DNA of 64,000 nt from an uncultured Verrucomicrobiae bacterium (GCA_963801255.1 CAWDEC010000006.1:650898-714897), one strand, 5' to 3'; shown: positions 48,154-63,769, numbered from the stretch's first letter. Numbers and translations are program-made. Notes: generated by a model from the letters alone, not told the origin.

Positions 48154-50328
48154 ATGAAACCGCGACCGTTCGAAAGCGGTTTGGCGGCGTGCAGGCGAGG
48201 CGCGTCGATCGGGGGATGCACGCTCGCGTTTTTCTCTCTCCTCGTCGCGGGCTGCAAACCCAAGCCTGCACCCGAGGACGAAGCCAAACTCGCCGGTCTC
48301 ACGCCTAACGACTTTCCGCAGACCACGGCTGACATTTTCAAGCCGCTCGACGGTGGGATCGCGCTCGAGCCTAACGAAATTATGGGCCGCAACACCTGGA
48401 ACCTCTGGAGTGGCGGCAACCAGCATTTCTGGAATCACGTCGCCCAGGACAGCTTTGGCCTCATGGACCTGCTCAAGATGCTGGACAACCGCAAATACCC
48501 GCGTGGCGACCGCTTCAAGACTCTCGGTCTGGTGAACGAGCCCGGTTTCCGCGCCGCGACCAAGCCGGACGAATACGGTCTCTGGCTCGATGAGCAGGTT
48601 GAACCGGAGCCAGCCGGGATTGACGACAAAATCTATGGGAAACCTTCCGGCATTCTCGGGTTCCGTCTCTTCCCCAATCCGGAGTTCGACGATGCAGCGC
48701 GCCAAAAGTGGGATGGCGCGCGCTTCATGAACGACCCGCATTATTACAGCAACAATAAACTCGTTAGGCCATATCGCGTCGGGGTTGCCTGCGGGGCCTG
48801 TCACATCTCGCCCAATCCTTCCAAGCCCCCGGACGACCCGGAAAATCCGCGCTGGGAAAATCTTGCCTCCGCCATCGGCAACCAATACATCCGGGAAGGA
48901 AAAGTCTTCGCGGCGAACGTGGAAAAAGGCGGCTTCTTCTACGAAGAACTGGCCGCGCAACCGCCCGGCACGTCGGACACCTCACGCATCGCGACCGATC
49001 ACATCAACAACCCCAATGCGATCAACGCCATCTTCCTCCTGGCCGAACGCGAAAAGATGGCCCGGAACGAAAAGATGGCCGGCGGCACCCTCGCTTTGCC
49101 GGGCGAGAAAGAGGAAATGGCGGTGCCACATATTTTGAAAGATGGCGCCGACTCGATCGGCGTCGCGGGCGCGACCATCCGCGTTTACGTCAACATCGGG
49201 ATGTTCTCCGAGTATTGGCTCACGCGCCACAACCGTCTCATCGGCCTTACCGCGCAGGAACCGTTCGAGATTCCTTTTGCACAAGAGCATTCTGTCTTCT
49301 GGCGGGCGACGGAACAGCGAGTCGCCAATATCGCGGCTTTCTTCCGGCGACTCCAACCCTATCATCTCGCCGACGCACCGGGCGGCGCGGCCTATCTTTC
49401 GACCGACGAATCGCTCATGAATCACGGCAAGCTCATCTTTGCCAACAGTTGCGCCCATTGCCACTCGAGCAAACAACCTCCCCCCGGGATCGATCCCGAG
49501 TCTGGTGACGGGAAAGCCTGGTTTCGCGCCGCCGTCATGAAGCCGGATTTCCTTGAGAACAATTTTCTCTCCAGCGACCAGCGTTATCCGCTTTCGAGAA
49601 TCCGGACTAACTCCGCCCGCGCCTTGGGAACGAACGCCATGTCCGGTCACGTCTGGGATAACTTTTCCTCGACTAACTATAAGGAACTGCCGCTCCCCGA
49701 AGACCTCGAGTTTTACAATCCGTGGGACGAGACACAGCCGATCAAGTTCCAGCCGAAAGCGAAAAAGACCGGGCCCGGCTGGTATCGCGTGCCTTCACTC
49801 GTTAGTCTTTGGAGCTCGGCACCCTTCCTGCATAACAACGCGCTCGGTAAGTTTACCGGCGATCCTTCGGTCGCAGGCCGCTTGGAAGCATTTAACGACG
49901 CCGTCGAAAAACTCCTCTGGCCGGAAAAGCGTCTCGGCAAAGCGTCGATCTGGCGGACCCAGAATGAATGTTACCTCCACCTGAGAAAGGAATTCGTCCC
50001 CGAAGTGCTGCAGTCCTTTGCCGACACGGACGGCTATGTAAAACTCGGGCCGATTCCAAAAGGCACGCCCATTAACCTGCTCGCCAACACCGAGCCCGAT
50101 TTCGATCAATTGGCCGCGCTCAACATCAGTTTGGGCAAAGCTCTGCTCGCCATTCATGCCCGTAACCTTTCGCCGGAGGAAGCGCGCAAGGAACTGATCA
50201 AGTCCGTCCCCGAGTTACTGGCGGCGAACAAGTGTCCCGATTTCATCGAAGACGAAGGCCATTACTTCGGGACCGATCTGCCCGACGAAGACAAGCGCGC
50301 CTTGATCGAATACCTGAAGACTTTTTAA
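48154..50328 (+). CDS. di-haem c-type cytochrome, CCP/MauG-like (paralog 1), lipoprotein-type signal
   Basis: 724-aa ORF with the LLVAGC lipobox and two CxxCH motifs (CGACH, CAHCH). The C-terminal ...DKRALIEYLKTF tail is shared with the two downstream paralogs. Confidence 0.7.
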   Translation: MKPRPFESGLAACRRGASIGGCTLAFFSLLVAGCKPKPAPEDEAKLAGLTPNDFPQTTADIFKPLDGGIALEPNEIMGRNTWNLWSGGNQHFWNHVAQDSFGLMDLLKMLDNRKYPRGDRFKTLGLVNEPGFRAATKPDEYGLWLDEQVEPEPAGIDDKIYGKPSGILGFRLFPNPEFDDAARQKWDGARFMNDPHYYSNNKLVRPYRVGVACGACHISPNPSKPPDDPENPRWENLASAIGNQYIREGKVFAANVEKGGFFYEELAAQPPGTSDTSRIATDHINNPNAINAIFLLAEREKMARNEKMAGGTLALPGEKEEMAVPHILKDGADSIGVAGATIRVYVNIGMFSEYWLTRHNRLIGLTAQEPFEIPFAQEHSVFWRATEQRVANIAAFFRRLQPYHLADAPGGAAYLSTDESLMNHGKLIFANSCAHCHSSKQPPPGIDPESGDGKAWFRAAVMKPDFLENNFLSSDQRYPLSRIRTNSARALGTNAMSGHVWDNFSSTNYKELPLPEDLEFYNPWDETQPIKFQPKAKKTGPGWYRVPSLVSLWSSAPFLHNNALGKFTGDPSVAGRLEAFNDAVEKLLWPEKRLGKASIWRTQNECYLHLRKEFVPEVLQSFADTDGYVKLGPIPKGTPINLLANTEPDFDQLAALNISLGKALLAIHARNLSPEEARKELIKSVPELLAANKCPDFIEDEGHYFGTDLPDEDKRALIEYLKTF

Positions 50329-50357
50329 CCCGTTGCGCCCTAACGAAAGGAAAGAAG

Positions 50358-50795
50358 ATGACCGCTGCTGAAATGTTAAAGATGTCGCAGGCTGATCTGG
50401 ACACACTGTTTACCGAAAGTCCCGCGGGAGAAATTCCCAAAGGCGAAGGTAAAGGCACGGCGATCGTCGCTCCGGGCACGACCTACACGCAGAACATTGC
50501 GAGTTTTGTCAATCACTTCGCCTGGCAGGGGAAAGTCTTCGATCCGGAGAAAGGAGTCTTGCGCAACAAGATCACGACTTTTGGCCTGAATGCCATCATC
50601 GCCAAAGTCTACAAAGGCGAAAGCTGGCTCGACGGCAAGGAGTGCATCGTCCTCGATTACTCGGACACCTCACTCCTCGCCCATTGGGTCCGTGACGAAA
50701 TCCGTGAGGTCGCGCCGCACACTTATCTCGGCAAAGTTTACTGGAGCAAAAAGCGCCTGATCGATTTCGCACTCGAGTTTCCTGCTTCTGCCTAA
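50358..50795 (+). CDS. hypothetical protein (145 aa)
   Basis: ATG preceded by AAGGAAAG. Sequence MTAAEMLKMSQADLDTLFTESPAGEIPKGEGKGTAIVAPG... It is tightly spaced between paralogs 1 and 2. Confidence 0.6.
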   Translation: MTAAEMLKMSQADLDTLFTESPAGEIPKGEGKGTAIVAPGTTYTQNIASFVNHFAWQGKVFDPEKGVLRNKITTFGLNAIIAKVYKGESWLDGKECIVLDYSDTSLLAHWVRDEIREVAPHTYLGKVYWSKKRLIDFALEFPASA

Positions 50796-50810
50796 CGAAT
50801 TGTTGCGGCC

Positions 50811-52223
50811 ATGGCCGATCCCATCCCAACGCCGCCGCCCAAACCGATTGTTTGGTGGTGGCGGATCCTCGTTCTGGTGGTCGTCGGCCTGGTTATTATC
50901 GCCGCCTATAGCCTGCTGGGCCGACTTACCCTGGATAAGCCGGTCGCCTACGCCGATGCGGAAGAGTTTTTCAAATACGGCTCGCTGGGCGGCGAGCGCG
51001 AATCCGGCATCCCCTATTGGATCTGGAAAGTTCTCCCGAAACTATTTCCAGAATATCTGCCGGGAAAACAATACGTCCCGGGCCGCGAATACGCCTCGTT
51101 AGGCTTTATCTACGAACCGGGCAAAGACCTACCCGTGGGCGTTTCGCAACGCAACACCCAAGGGATCAATCGGGTCTTTCTCAACTGCGCCATCTGCCAC
51201 GCCGGCACCGTGCGCGGGAGCGCGCAAAGCCCGCACACAATCTACACCGGGATGCCCTCGAACACGGTCGATCTCGAAGGCTTTCAGCGTTTCATCTTCT
51301 CCTGTGCTTCCGATCCGCGCTTCAACGCCGATCGCATGATGTGCGAAATGCAGGCGCTCGGCGCCCACTACGATCTGCTCAACCGCACCATTATTCGTTA
51401 CTACGCCATTCCGTTCATGCGCGAGCGGCTCCTCATGTTGAAGGACCGTTTCCGTTTCATCGACTGGGAACCGGAACAGGGGCCAGGGCGGACCGACACC
51501 TTTAATCCCGCCAAGACACTCATCAATTATCCACTCGAAAAGATGGAGACGCGCGAGCTGGTCGGCATTTGCGACCTGCCCTCGATCTGGCTGCAAGGCC
51601 CACGGCGCGATCACGACATGCAGCTGCACTGGGACGGTAACCAGCGCAAAATGGAAGAGCGCAATAAGAACGCAGCCTTTGGGACCGGCGCCTTTCCACC
51701 TACGATCGATCTTCAAGGTTTGGCCCGCATCGAAAAGTGGCTGCTCGACCTTACGCCGCCGAAGTATCCTTTCCCGATCAATCAAGCTCTCGTCGCTCAG
51801 GGCGAGAAAATCTACGGCCAATACTGTGGCGATTGTCACGGGCGAAATGGTCGTGACTTTAGCGGACGCTGGGTCGGAGGCGTGACTCCGGTCGAGCACG
51901 TCGGCACTGATCGGCATCGCCTCGATTCATTCACGCCCGAGCTCGCTTCCACTCTCAGCACCATCTATACCGGTTATCCTTGGCGCTTCACGCATTTCCG
52001 CAAGACTTTCGGTTACGCTAACTCGCCCCTCGACGGCATCTGGTTGCGCGCCCCCTATCTCCACAACGGCTCCGTGCCGACCTTGCGCGATTTGCTGAAG
52101 CCAGGCGCGCAACGGCCGCAGGTTTTCTATCGCGGCTACGACGTTTACGATCAGCAAAATGTCGGTTTCGTCTCGCAGGCCGAACGTTTCAGTCCGGATG
52201 GTCGCAGTCTCGATGACGCCTAA
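50811..52223 (+). CDS. di-haem c-type cytochrome, CCP/MauG-like (paralog 2); C-terminal ~55 aa continue in another frame (to 52392)
   Basis: 470-aa ORF with an N-terminal TM anchor, CAICH and CGDCH motifs and APYLHNGSVPTLRDLL. The expected tail (...YFRFDT...GTSLSPEDKDALLEYLKTF) is encoded in the +1 frame by ORF 52159..52392. This indicates an apparent frameshift or pseudogene. Confidence 0.7.
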   Translation: MADPIPTPPPKPIVWWWRILVLVVVGLVIIAAYSLLGRLTLDKPVAYADAEEFFKYGSLGGERESGIPYWIWKVLPKLFPEYLPGKQYVPGREYASLGFIYEPGKDLPVGVSQRNTQGINRVFLNCAICHAGTVRGSAQSPHTIYTGMPSNTVDLEGFQRFIFSCASDPRFNADRMMCEMQALGAHYDLLNRTIIRYYAIPFMRERLLMLKDRFRFIDWEPEQGPGRTDTFNPAKTLINYPLEKMETRELVGICDLPSIWLQGPRRDHDMQLHWDGNQRKMEERNKNAAFGTGAFPPTIDLQGLARIEKWLLDLTPPKYPFPINQALVAQGEKIYGQYCGDCHGRNGRDFSGRWVGGVTPVEHVGTDRHRLDSFTPELASTLSTIYTGYPWRFTHFRKTFGYANSPLDGIWLRAPYLHNGSVPTLRDLLKPGAQRPQVFYRGYDVYDQQNVGFVSQAERFSPDGRSLDDA

Positions 52224-52461
52224 CGATCAAAGGACTTATTTCCGTTTCGATACACGAGTAAACCAGGCGGGCCGAACGCCGCGGGAACGCAACGAAGGCA
52301 ACTCTAATGCCGGCCACGAAGGCGATGCCTACGGCACTTCGCTGTCACCGGAAGATAAGGACGCGCTTCTCGAATACCTCAAGACTTTCTGATGAAACTC
52401 TCGCCGAAGACAAAGCGTATTCTCTGGGTCGCAGCTGTCCTTTTCGTGCTCCTTCTCATCT

Positions 52462-53922
52462 TTGGCGGCCTTTTCACCTGGGACAAATTCTTTCCGCCAG
52501 GAAAAGCAGGTCTTCGCCAACGAAGCGGAACAATTCAAATACGGTTCGTTAGGCGCGGAAGGCGATCGGGGCGTCCCGTATTATCTTTGGCTGGTTCTTC
52601 CGAGAGTTTTTCCCGATCTCATGCCCGGGCCGGGCGGCTATAAATCGTTCGGCGTCGTCTGGGAAGAAGGCGCTGAGATTCCGGTTGGCTTTTCCAAGAA
52701 AAGGGTTGGCTTCGACCGCATCACGAACAATTGCGCCATCTGTCACACCGCTACCTGGCGGGCGCGCGAAGAGGAAACGCCACATGTCGTGATCGCGGCC
52801 GGGAGCAACGTACGCCTTCAGGAAATGCTGCGCTTCCTTTTCAAGGCAGCGCATGACCCACGCTTCAACGCCGACACCATTATGAGCGAAGTCCGGCTCG
52901 TGAGCGCAAACAACTTCGGCAACGGCGGCCTCTCATTCATCGACCGGCAGATTTATCGCTACCTGCTCATTCCCCTAACGAAAAAAGCACTACTCGAGCA
53001 GGAGAAACAATTTACCTGGATGAATCGGTATGTGAGCGACAACCATCCCAAGCCACCCTGGGGTCCGGGTCGCGACGACGCCATGAACCTGACCAAGTAC
53101 TTCATGACCAGCATGCCGGAGGACAACTCGGTTGGGCCGACGGATTTTCCTTCCATTTGGAATCTCGGTATCCGCAGCGGCAAGGACAAAGCCGGCAAAC
53201 AGATGCTGCTCAACTGGTCGGGCGATACGCCGGCGGTTCGTTCGGTCCTGATTGATTCCGCCCTCGGCCTTGGCGCACCGGCGCGACCATGGTTTCTGCA
53301 AAGGATGGCTGACCTTGATCGCTACCTGAGCAACCTGCCGCCGCCGGCCTGGCCATTCGCCAAAACCAGCCCGATCAATCAGCAACTTGCGGCCGAAGGT
53401 CAGAAAATCTTTGCGCGTGATTGCGCAGCCTGTCACGAGCCGCGCGGCGAATTTACGAACAAGGTGATCCCGATCGGACAGATCGGAACCGATGCCGAAC
53501 GCATGCATACCTGGTCGAAAGCCGCCGCCCAGGAAGCGAATCGCAAAGTGAAAGAGTTAGGCATCGATCGTCCGCCGATGACCGAGCTTGATCCATACGG
53601 CTACATCTCACCTCCGCTCGACGGACTCTGGATGCGCGCGCCTTATCTGCATAACGGTTCCGTCCCCAGTTTGCGCGACCTGCTCAATTTGCCTAACGAA
53701 CGACCACAAACCTTCCATCGCGGCTACGACGTCTACGATCCGGTAAAGGTCGGCTTCCAGGAACCGGCACCGCGTCCTGTAGGCGTGAACGGCGGGATGG
53801 AGCAGCGCTATTTCCTCTACGACACGCAACGCCGCGGCGACGGTAATGGCGGTCATCTCTACGGAACCAGCCTTCAGCCGGAAGAAAAAGATCAACTGCT
53901 GGAGTATCTCAAAACTCTCTAG
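52462..53922 (+). CDS. di-haem c-type cytochrome, CCP/MauG-like (paralog 3); N-terminal TM anchor encoded in another frame from ATG 52392
   Basis: 486-aa ORF with CAICH and CAACH motifs, APYLHNGSVPSLRDLL and the tail EEKDQLLEYLKTL. The membrane anchor MKLSPKTKRILWVAAVLFVLLLIFGGLFTW lies in ORF 52392..52643, one frame off. Confidence 0.7.
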   Translation: MAAFSPGTNSFRQEKQVFANEAEQFKYGSLGAEGDRGVPYYLWLVLPRVFPDLMPGPGGYKSFGVVWEEGAEIPVGFSKKRVGFDRITNNCAICHTATWRAREEETPHVVIAAGSNVRLQEMLRFLFKAAHDPRFNADTIMSEVRLVSANNFGNGGLSFIDRQIYRYLLIPLTKKALLEQEKQFTWMNRYVSDNHPKPPWGPGRDDAMNLTKYFMTSMPEDNSVGPTDFPSIWNLGIRSGKDKAGKQMLLNWSGDTPAVRSVLIDSALGLGAPARPWFLQRMADLDRYLSNLPPPAWPFAKTSPINQQLAAEGQKIFARDCAACHEPRGEFTNKVIPIGQIGTDAERMHTWSKAAAQEANRKVKELGIDRPPMTELDPYGYISPPLDGLWMRAPYLHNGSVPSLRDLLNLPNERPQTFHRGYDVYDPVKVGFQEPAPRPVGVNGGMEQRYFLYDTQRRGDGNGGHLYGTSLQPEEKDQLLEYLKTL

Positions 53923-62834: not shown

Positions 62835-63769
62835 TCCGATCGAATTTTGGCTCGCGGATGATACTTGTGGTGGATCGCCTTCAGCCGCTGCTGATCGACG
62901 TGCGTGTAAACCTGCGTCGTCGAAATGTCGGCGTGCCCGAGCATCTCCTGAATAATGCGCAGATCCGCACCGTTGCCTAACAAATGGGTGGCGAAACTGT
63001 GCCGCAAGAGATGCGGGTAGACATTTGCCTCCAAGCCGGAGCGTCGGGCGATCGCCTTCACAATCTGCCAGATGCGAACCGTCGTTAGGCGGCCGCCACG
63101 CACGGATAGAAAAACCTCACTTCCGCTCCGGCGCCGGACCAGACGTGGCCGCTCCTCTTCCAGGTAGGCAGCGAGCGCCCCGCAAGCCTTGCGCCCCACC
63201 GGCACAATCCTTGTCTTGTTGCCTTTTCCAGTCACGCGGACAACGCCGCTCTTCAGATCGAGATTTTCCAGCTTTGCTCCCGCCAGTTCCGAGATGCGAA
63301 GCCCGCTCGCGTAGAGCAATTCCAGCATCGCCTTGTCTCGCAGTCCCAAAGGCGCCTTCATGTCCACGCTTTCGAGCAATTGTTCGACCTGCAACTCATT
63401 CAAGGTCTCCGGTAGATAGCGCTCAATGCGCGGCAGACCTAACGACTCAGTCGGATCCTTGATGACAAAGCCGCGTGCGCCGGCGAAACGAAAGAAAATC
63501 TTCAAAGCCACCACAATGAGTTTGATCGAGGAAGCGGCGAGTCCGCCACGTTTCCGTTCCGCCAGGTATTCACTCACCAGAGGCAGCCCGACCTCCTGCG
63601 CCCGTGTGATCTGCTTTCGTTGCGCGCACCATTGGGCAAATTCCCCTAACGATCGCTGGGTGGAGAGCTGATAATTCTCCGACAAACCGCGCTCGACTGC
63701 GAGGTAGCGAATGAAAGCCTCGATCTCCTCCTCCATTGCGCTCCACGCTATCTGTGCTCGCGTTGACAA
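62831..63769 (-). CDS. tyrosine recombinase, XerC/XerD family
   Basis: 312-aa ORF with LRHSFATHLL, GADLRIIQEMLGHADISTTQVYTHV and the catalytic Tyr region. Confidence 0.85.
   Translation of the reverse strand: MSTRAQIAWSAMEEEIEAFIRYLAVERGLSENYQLSTQRSLGEFAQWCAQRKQITRAQEVGLPLVSEYLAERKRGGLAASSIKLIVVALKIFFRFAGARGFVIKDPTESLGLPRIERYLPETLNELQVEQLLESVDMKAPLGLRDKAMLELLYASGLRISELAGAKLENLDLKSGVVRVTGKGNKTRIVPVGRKACGALAAYLEEERPRLVRRRSGSEVFLSVRGGRLTTVRIWQIVKAIARRSGLEANVYPHLLRHSFATHLLGNGADLRIIQEMLGHADISTTQVYTHVDQQRLKAIHHKYHPRAKIRSD

Follow-up and report, generated by a model that had tools for sequence, protein, structure and literature searches.

A nine-base word kept at the DNA level underlies a codon contrast between two cytochrome paralogs of an uncultured Verrucomicrobiae bacterium and may be an uptake signal

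We analysed a 64,000-nt stretch of DNA from an uncultured Verrucomicrobiae bacterium (GCA_963801255.1, CAWDEC010000006.1:650898-714897; hereafter the window, numbered from its first letter) in which two neighboring cytochrome genes, paralogs 2 and 3, encode the same Ser-Leu-Gly (SLG) tripeptide with different codons. Paralog 3 carries an exact copy of the 9-nt word TCGTTAGGC (reverse complement GCCTAACGA) at this site and paralog 2 does not. This contrast is a local symptom of a word that is found throughout the genome. Copies of the word are placed and kept at the DNA level regardless of strand, reading frame, coding status and codon preference, and often regardless of the encoded amino acid, a conclusion that we consider nearly certain. 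The uptake signal sequences of Pasteurellaceae and Neisseriaceae offer the closest analogy, by which we consider a drive exerted through DNA uptake the likeliest mechanism; we give this mechanism, and with it the statement as a whole, about an even chance of being correct.

The window belongs to a 3.92-Mb metagenome-assembled genome (MAG; G000) of 21 contigs and 57% G+C. All genomes compared here are MAGs, and relatives among them are not independent samples. The window contains 54 exact copies of the word, where 0.34 are expected and 100 shuffles gave no more than 2. Genome-wide we identified 2,519 copies (0.64 per kb; 1,316 forward and 1,203 reverse), making TCGTTAGGC the most frequent 9-mer of G000, five times as common as the next unrelated one (501 copies), with an enrichment of ∼40-fold over a reversed-word control. 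The word is not palindromic, its reverse complement being a different sequence. Across 2,518 analysed copies, the flanking positions from −15 to +15 carry at most 0.17 bit each, with only a faint A-rich 3′ side, and the word is thus a bare word and not a piece of a longer repeat. Non-coding sequence of G000 is richer in the word (1.04 copies per kb) than coding sequence (0.56 per kb). Intergenic copies exhibit a flat profile with no promoter-side or terminator-side preference: there are 0.81 copies per kb in divergent spacers, 1.02 in tandem spacers and 1.18 in convergent ones.

Coding sequence was defined by 2,853 open reading frames (ORFs) of our own, scored by codon usage and covering 82% of G000; the set is approximate, and the effects described far exceed its error. 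A total of 1,788 copies (71%) fall within coding sequence and are spread over all four stop-free frames. We compared the number of words at peptide sites able to hold the word synonymously with the number expected from codon usage and found a 23- to 119-fold excess depending on the frame (Table 1). For the SLG frame, 52% of all S-L-G tripeptides are spelled TCG TTA GGC, one of 144 possible codon triplets, against 0.5% expected (∼100-fold). The two remaining frames yield stop codons, and in our coding set the word supplies 87 of 890 TAA and 89 of 900 TAG stops. An earlier interpretation of the window made from the sequence alone (the sequence-only reading) had proposed from the two paralogs that selection or drive targets the DNA word and not the peptide, and the excess in every frame bears this out.

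The same reading had judged by eye that TTA, CTA and AGG are uncommon in this coding sequence, and they are: TTA and CTA make up 4.8% and 4.4% of Leu codons and AGG 5.0% of Arg codons in G000. That the motif forces these codons is true of 26 of the window's 44 coding copies (11 impose AGG, 8 CTA and 7 TTA); the other 18 lie in the Pro-Asn-Asp/Glu frame, the most used frame of the word, and need no rare codon. The strong form of the idea, in which rare codons lie mostly inside the motif, fails, since the exact word holds only 9.8% of TTA, 8.1% of CTA and 9.0% of AGG codons genome-wide (in the window, 7/76, 8/91 and 11/53) and ∼90% lie outside it. These codons are nevertheless ∼100-fold enriched in the word context and so are not equally common elsewhere. 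Their share inside the word rises to 21–22% in the fifth of genes poorest in rare codons. Across quintiles, word density falls from 0.76 per kb in genes that avoid rare codons to 0.22 per kb in rare-codon-rich, atypical genes, rare-codon content being only a proxy for recent gene acquisition. We considered codon cost as the main brake on the word and found it weak: G000 encodes the cognate tRNA-Leu(TAA), tRNA-Leu(TAG) and tRNA-Arg(CCT), and the genes poorest in rare codons hold the most copies, even in the rare-codon frames. Codon quality likewise explains frame use only weakly, because the frame with the worst codon (TTA) is the second most used.

The tripeptides encoded by the word are over-represented. 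The count of SLG is 994, compared with 541 predicted from composition (1.84×), with permutations of SLG occurring 489–649 times, while PNE occurs 436 times against 111 expected (3.9×) and PND 381 times against 100 (3.8×). Samples of word-poor relatives exhibited no excess of SLG, PND or PNE. Eight of 80 word-coded SLG, PND or PNE tripeptides of G000 are identical in orthologs of three other genera, against 37–40% of control tripeptides in the same alignments (p = 2e-8). Most coding copies therefore arose with an amino-acid change at weakly constrained positions, and purely synonymous cases are a minority type because most word-coded tripeptides are not kept in other genera. The expectation that motif gains are synonymous substitutions thus breaks down genome-wide, where the word mostly alters the peptide; it holds at the KYGSLG peptide shared by the two cytochromes.

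Both di-haem cytochromes match PF21419 (RoxA-like cytochrome c) and are 37% identical, with their KYGSLG peptides aligned. Upon re-reading the sites and ORFs, we found the coordinates and reading frames given by the sequence-only reading to be right. The codons are AAA TAC GGC TCG CTG GGC in paralog 2 and AAA TAC GGT TCG TTA GGC in paralog 3. Two genomes of the same genus, G004 and G002, are syntenic with G000 across the whole window at 89–91% nucleotide identity. The paralog 3 word site is identical in all three genomes, with the adjacent Tyr codon varying between TAC and TAT. The paralog 2 site reads TCG CTG GGC in G000, TCG CTC GGC in G004 and TCG CTC GGT in G002, and because these spellings differ we conclude that its synonymous sites drift freely. 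In a sister clade, orthologs of paralog 2 have TCG TTA GGC at the same site. The two genes contain other copies of the word (Table 1). At 53691–53699, G002 has GGCTAACGA (Ala-Asn-Glu), a protein-changing difference. At 52218–52226, G004 and G002 have GAC-CCTAACGA in frame, encoding Asp-Pro-Asn-Asp, where G000 has GACGCCTAACGA. The extra G in G000 is either a real mutation that completes the word and breaks the gene or a consensus error; by a rough estimate, the chance that a random 1-nt insertion makes the word is ∼1e-4.

Table 1. Positions of the word, of the genes around the focal site and of integron-type sites. Positions without a contig prefix are those of the window; observed and expected numbers refer to peptide sites of G000 able to hold the word synonymously.
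Feature	Position	Strand	Details
All exact word copies in the window	1–64000	23 +, 31 −	44 in predicted coding sequence
Frame TCG TTA GGC (SLG)			521 copies; 521 observed, 5.4 expected, 96×
Frame xTC GTT AGG Cxx (xVRx)			314 copies; 314 observed, 2.6 expected, 119×
Frame xGC CTA ACG Axx (xLTx)			384 copies; 384 observed, 4.3 expected, 90×
Frame xxG CCT AAC GAx (xPND or xPNE)			569 copies; 557 observed, 23.9 expected, 23×
Word copy at the end of ORF 50232–50795	50790–50798	−	TAA at 50793–50795 is the stop codon of the ORF
Cytochrome paralog 2 ORF	50811–52223	+	RoxA-like di-haem cytochrome c; truncated by TAA in word copy 52218–52226
Paralog 2 homologous Ser-Leu-Gly, without the word	50982–50990	+	In-frame TCGCTGGGC, TCG CTG GGC
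Second in-frame TCG TTA GGC, within paralog 2	51096–51104	+	YASLGF; kept in G004 and G002
Word copy GCC TAA CGA	52218–52226	−	Completed by a 1-nt G insertion found only in G000; premature TAA and frameshift in paralog 2
Cytochrome paralog 3 ORF	52462–53922	+	RoxA-like; N-terminal membrane helix in a different frame, from 52392
Paralog 3 word copy TCGTTAGGC	52546–52554	+	In-frame TCG TTA GGC (Ser-Leu-Gly) of KYGSLGA
Paralog 3 word copy, frame xxG CCT AAC GAx	53691–53699	−	Pro-Asn-Glu; commonest frame, rare codons unneeded
G000 attC-type sites (∼17)	C12:383520–435315, C11:7543–9442, C1:6026, C2:3274–5225, C16:5098		RYCTAACCA...TCTCGTTAGRY, 102–123 nt
G022 homogeneous cassette array (L121, L123, L124)	C7:93629–96651, C21:53993–55860, C13:25–1453, C10:119–221		attC GCCTAACCAAGCG...CTCGTTAGGC
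G022 integron integrase gene	C10:677–1612

Other 1-nt insertions specific to G000 occur at 52490 and 55397, the extra C at ∼52490 splitting the membrane helix of paralog 3 from the body of the protein. Several pilus-ATPase genes of G000 are also broken into two frames (C8:253975, C12:700420 and C12:702150). G000 may contain assembly indel errors or several pseudogenes. We examined the frame breaks of the pilus ATPases for word copies and found none there, so a word-linked assembly error is no general explanation.

A scan of species-representative genomes placed the lineage in the Verrucomicrobiota, order Chthoniobacterales, near Candidatus Udaeobacter, and yielded 55 orthologous loci. We built a maximum-likelihood protein tree of 52 rows with the focal site left out. 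KYGSLG is present in all rows except three with KYGSMG. The word-bearing spelling TCG TTA GGC was found in 11 of the 12 rows of the word-rich clade that includes G000, where local word density is 0.8–1.1 per kb, in 4 of 11 rows of an intermediate group, and in 0 of 29 rows of a Udaeobacter-like clade, which uses TCG or TCC/TCA, then CTT/CTC/CTG/CTA, then GGN. This distribution requires at least four changes on the tree. The word at KYGSLG is therefore a lineage-specific synonymous overlay on a fixed peptide. The peptide is constrained and the word is not ancestral, so that the alternative of an ancestral, peptide-constrained motif does not apply, and at the focal site too the pressure is on the DNA word. 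In paralog 3 the word was superimposed on the invariant Ser-Leu-Gly through two synonymous changes (CTN to TTA).

Across the whole window, 43 of the 54 word copies are exact in G004, against 43.7% of all 9-mers (p = 7e-8), and 36 are exact in G002, against 40.7% (p = 1e-4). In both genomes 31 of the 54 are exact, against 29.2% of all 9-mers (p = 1e-5). Conservation of the copies is thus roughly double that of random 9-mers, but individual copies come and go: parsimony reconstructs ∼17 losses and 10 gains along the two sister terminal branches, with single substitutions accounting for nearly all of them. By our own reading, ∼15 of the variable coding word sites are synonymous and ∼9 are protein-changing.

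TCGTTAGGC is confined to the family in quantity. Genomes of the same genus contain 1,808–2,628 copies and other genera of the family 57–1,312, while twelve other sampled families of the order contain 1–19 copies, fewer than the reversed-word control. By k-mer counts on 100-kb samples, a second word, AAGATCGACA (complement TGTCGATCTT), dominates other genera of the family. Whole-genome counts of AAGATCGACA are 699–2,607 (up to 1.0 per kb) in the genomes of six genera (G009, G011, G013, G015, G017 and G018) and 12–54 in TCGTTAGGC-dominated genomes. The two words are abundant in largely complementary genera, with TCGTTAGGC weakly enriched where AAGATCGACA dominates. One genome, G010, has neither word in quantity and has a GATCGCGTCGGC-like word.

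Two observations concern viral contigs. A 24-kb fragment classified as viral (L119, IMGVR_UViG_3300010366_000067) contains 7 word copies (0.29 per kb, with none for the reversed-word control), including a cluster of four within 230 nt. When viral contigs were scanned for close inverted pairs, only 4 came up, this fragment and three others that hold a single TCGTTAGGC-N15-GCCTAACGA hairpin each.

The uptake signal sequences (USS) of Pasteurellaceae and the DNA uptake sequences (DUS) of Neisseriaceae are reported to raise the frequency of the tripeptides they encode ∼2-fold, to use reading frames partly according to codon quality, to be scarce in genes that lack homologs and to fall on residues of low conservation (Findlay and Redfield 2009, PMC2817400). 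We favor this class because the sequence-level traits of our word match those reported for USS and DUS. As with the USS cores AAGTGCGGT of Haemophilus influenzae and ACAAGCGGT of Actinobacillus pleuropneumoniae, the word is a bare asymmetric 9-mer at ∼0.6–0.8 per kb that occurs in both orientations and in every stop-free frame, roughly doubles its tripeptides, falls on poorly conserved residues, is scarce in atypical genes, and has two types divided among genera. H. influenzae has 1,471 copies, 65% of them in ORFs (PMC2817400), compared with 2,519 and 71% here. Differences from USS are the phylum, Verrucomicrobiota, the high use here of the worst-codon frame, and the flanks, which lack the AT-rich tracts of USS. 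Preferential uptake has been shown for USS and is a prediction for our word. DUS (GCCGTCTGAA and its dialects, with the minor pilin ComP as receptor) resemble the word in being family-wide with lineage-specific versions, in a density of ∼1 per kb and in being a DNA-level trait that also shapes proteins (PMC2817400). DUS are mostly intergenic, with 34.5% in ORFs, in contrast to 71% for the word.

Under the favored uptake mechanism, a DNA-import machine (type IV pilus, ComEA, ComEC and DprA) would prefer fragments that bear the word. Whenever ordinary point mutation gave rise to the word in an allele, DNA of dead kin carrying that allele would be imported and recombined more often than DNA carrying the word-less allele. 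This molecular drive would lift word density to the point where mutation, together with selection on proteins and codons, holds it in check. In sister genera whose preference had switched, AAGATCGACA would build up while the old word decayed. G000 encodes ComEC, DprA, a ComEA-type helix-hairpin-helix protein, three secretins and five PilT-family ATPase genes. We identified no ComP-like receptor or other receptor candidate for the word. A literature search found no paper on this word except as a primer fragment, and none linking uptake sequences with Udaeobacter or Verrucomicrobia.

Several results weigh against an uptake drive. Word-less families of the order possess the same competence genes; these genes are necessary, not sufficient, and do not discriminate. 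In G009, the genome with the densest second word, the ComEC gene (C9:459447–460251) is apparently interrupted by a TGA or a frameshift, perhaps through an assembly error, and if real the break is awkward for the uptake model. The two words are unrelated sequences, whereas USS types differ at few positions and the dialects of known families by 1–3 nt. DUS often form inverted-pair terminators. Close inverted pairs of our word are at chance level genome-wide (38 within 60 nt; 91 gaps of ≤60 nt against ∼99 expected from a Poisson distribution), and we rejected a terminator-pair model on these grounds. The uptake preference is drawn by analogy for an uncultured lineage represented by MAGs, Chthoniobacterales near Ca. 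Udaeobacter, and conversion or binding-site selection inside the cell would yield the same static statistics. Finally, the integron core site contained in the word could point instead to a DNA-binding protein of the recombinase type.

The attC sites of integrons are bounded by an inverse core, RYYYAAC, and a core, GTTRRRY (PMC3053210). The word equals TC + GTTAGGC, a perfect fit to the core, and its complement includes GCCTAAC, a fit to the inverse core. In a genome of another family (G022), most of the 19 word copies fall in a ∼103-nt repeat that recurs every 400–900 nt at contig ends, and these repeats are integron attC sites. The attC arrays adjoining integron integrase genes in three other genomes (G011, G007 and G015) likewise end in TCTCG|TTAGRY, the ending typical of attC sites in the family of G000. 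We found the pattern RYCTAAC-N78-106-CTCGTTAGRY in 17 of the family's 18 genomes and, among 12 genomes from the other 12 families, in G022 alone. G000 has 25 pattern hits, of which ∼17 are apparently genuine attC sites ending in the word or a near-variant. We detected no integron integrase in G000, the best TIGR02249 match scoring 80 bits against a cut-off of 265; its attC clusters are either CALIN-like (clusters of attC sites lacking integron-integrases) or their intI gene is unassembled. The chance that a random 9-mer holds GTTAGGC or its complement is ∼4e-4, and since the comparison was made post hoc the integron link is a lead, not proof. We found no paper joining GTTRRRY, GTTAGGC and the integron.

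The dispersed copies are distinct from attC sites. An attC site has RYYYAAC and GTTRRRY paired across an imperfect palindrome of 57–141 nt in cassette arrays, a pairing found only at the ∼17 separate sites of G000 and in the arrays of G011, G007, G015 and G022. The ∼2,500 dispersed copies, which originate through point substitutions within conserved housekeeping genes, lack a partner box, hairpin and conserved flanks. We rejected the integron integrase itself as the driver: intI is absent from searches of G000, G008 and G009 yet present in word-less families, AAGATCGACA has no match to any conserved part of attC, and the dispersed copies are without attC flanks or partner boxes.

The integron link bears on a broader alternative, in which the word is the binding box of an abundant intracellular DNA-binding protein (an arm site of a tyrosine recombinase or IntI-type protein, or a nucleoid protein) and selection acts on density and not on single copies. 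The fit to the integron core, the near-restriction of this attC type to the family, the preservation of word copies above background and the typical form of a recombinase half-site, an asymmetric 9-bp box, all point toward it. The failure of integrase genes to track word abundance and the dissimilarity of AAGATCGACA to attC speak against it, as do the T, not C, found at −1 of dispersed copies, the lack of a partner box at attC distance, the absence of any position preference relative to genes and the fast turnover of copies. We regard a binding box as unlikely, though it is the alternative that survives best. We attach a similarly low probability to a variant of the uptake mechanism in which a self-DNA uptake tag was exapted from the family's own integron-cassette recombination core and the receptor was later re-tuned to AAGATCGACA. 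If this variant were true, kin and cassette-bearing DNA would be preferentially imported, and the word, in one of the most abundant lineages of uncultured soil bacteria, would be the first uptake tag that we could trace outside Proteobacteria.

Still less probable is a sequence-specific bias of repair or gene conversion inside the cell that "corrects" near-matches to the word. Conversion of this type has been proposed for very-short-patch repair and discussed for HIP1 (highly iterated palindrome 1; GCGATCGC) of cyanobacteria, a hyper-abundant short word that is both genic and intergenic and is kept at the DNA level. One-mismatch variants of our word are unevenly enriched, with 312 copies of TCGTCAGGC, 257 of TTGTTAGGC and 313 of TCGTTAGGG compared with 10–40 for changes at central positions. 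Such a bias would also fit the single substitutions to and from the word that make up nearly all differences between close genomes, and the word-completing insertion that breaks paralog 2 at 52218. HIP1, however, is an 8-bp palindrome linked to methyltransferase sites, whereas our word is asymmetric with 9 specified bases, unlike methyltransferase or Vsr-type sites, and no enzyme emerged as a candidate. The scarcity of the word in atypical genes of the same cell fits slow accumulation under any model and lends no support to fast conversion.

The remaining alternatives are very improbable. A polar chromosome signal, such as a Chi-like hotspot or an FtsK guide like KOPS (FtsK orienting polar sequences), would be short, asymmetric and over-represented as the word is. 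Those signals are co-oriented with replication, whereas word orientation is independent of GC skew (r = 0.06), contigs of opposite skew exhibit the same slight forward excess, and the enrichment over the control is far beyond that of Chi. Dispersed remnants of mobile elements, whether miniature inverted-repeat transposable elements (MITEs), repetitive extragenic palindromes (REPs) or scattered attC sites, are suggested by the ∼17 apparently genuine attC sites of G000 that end in the word or a near-variant, but no sequence or hairpin is conserved beyond its 9 bases, partner boxes at attC distance are not in excess, and differences between genomes are substitutions in conserved genes, not insertions. 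Least probable of all is peptide-level selection or chance codon choice with TTA incidental: KYGSLG is invariant as this would predict, yet orthologs hold the peptide with other codons, half of SLG falls on one codon triplet, and the 9-mer is enriched in four frames with unrelated peptides, on both strands and in stop codons and is densest in non-coding DNA.

If the word is an uptake tag, a dominant uncultured family of soil Verrucomicrobia would undergo self-recognising natural transformation. A selfish drive at the DNA level would then be rewriting codons and proteins, reaching about half of Ser-Leu-Gly and three quarters of compatible Pro-Asn-Asp/Glu sites. The identity between the word and the integron core gives a concrete lead on the origin of such tags. 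The word also affects annotation, providing ∼10% of TAA and TAG stops and inflating the rare-codon counts of well-adapted genes (21–22%), and because of these distortions it should be masked in analyses of codon usage, of the ratio of nonsynonymous to synonymous substitution rates (dN/dS) and of horizontal gene transfer. For binning, word density and type (TCGTTAGGC or AAGATCGACA) offer a cheap lineage marker that flags foreign DNA.

Near the end of the window is a Xer-type tyrosine recombinase gene (62879–63073, minus strand), whose 340-aa frame is kept in G004 and G002. A word copy at 63082 adjoins this gene.

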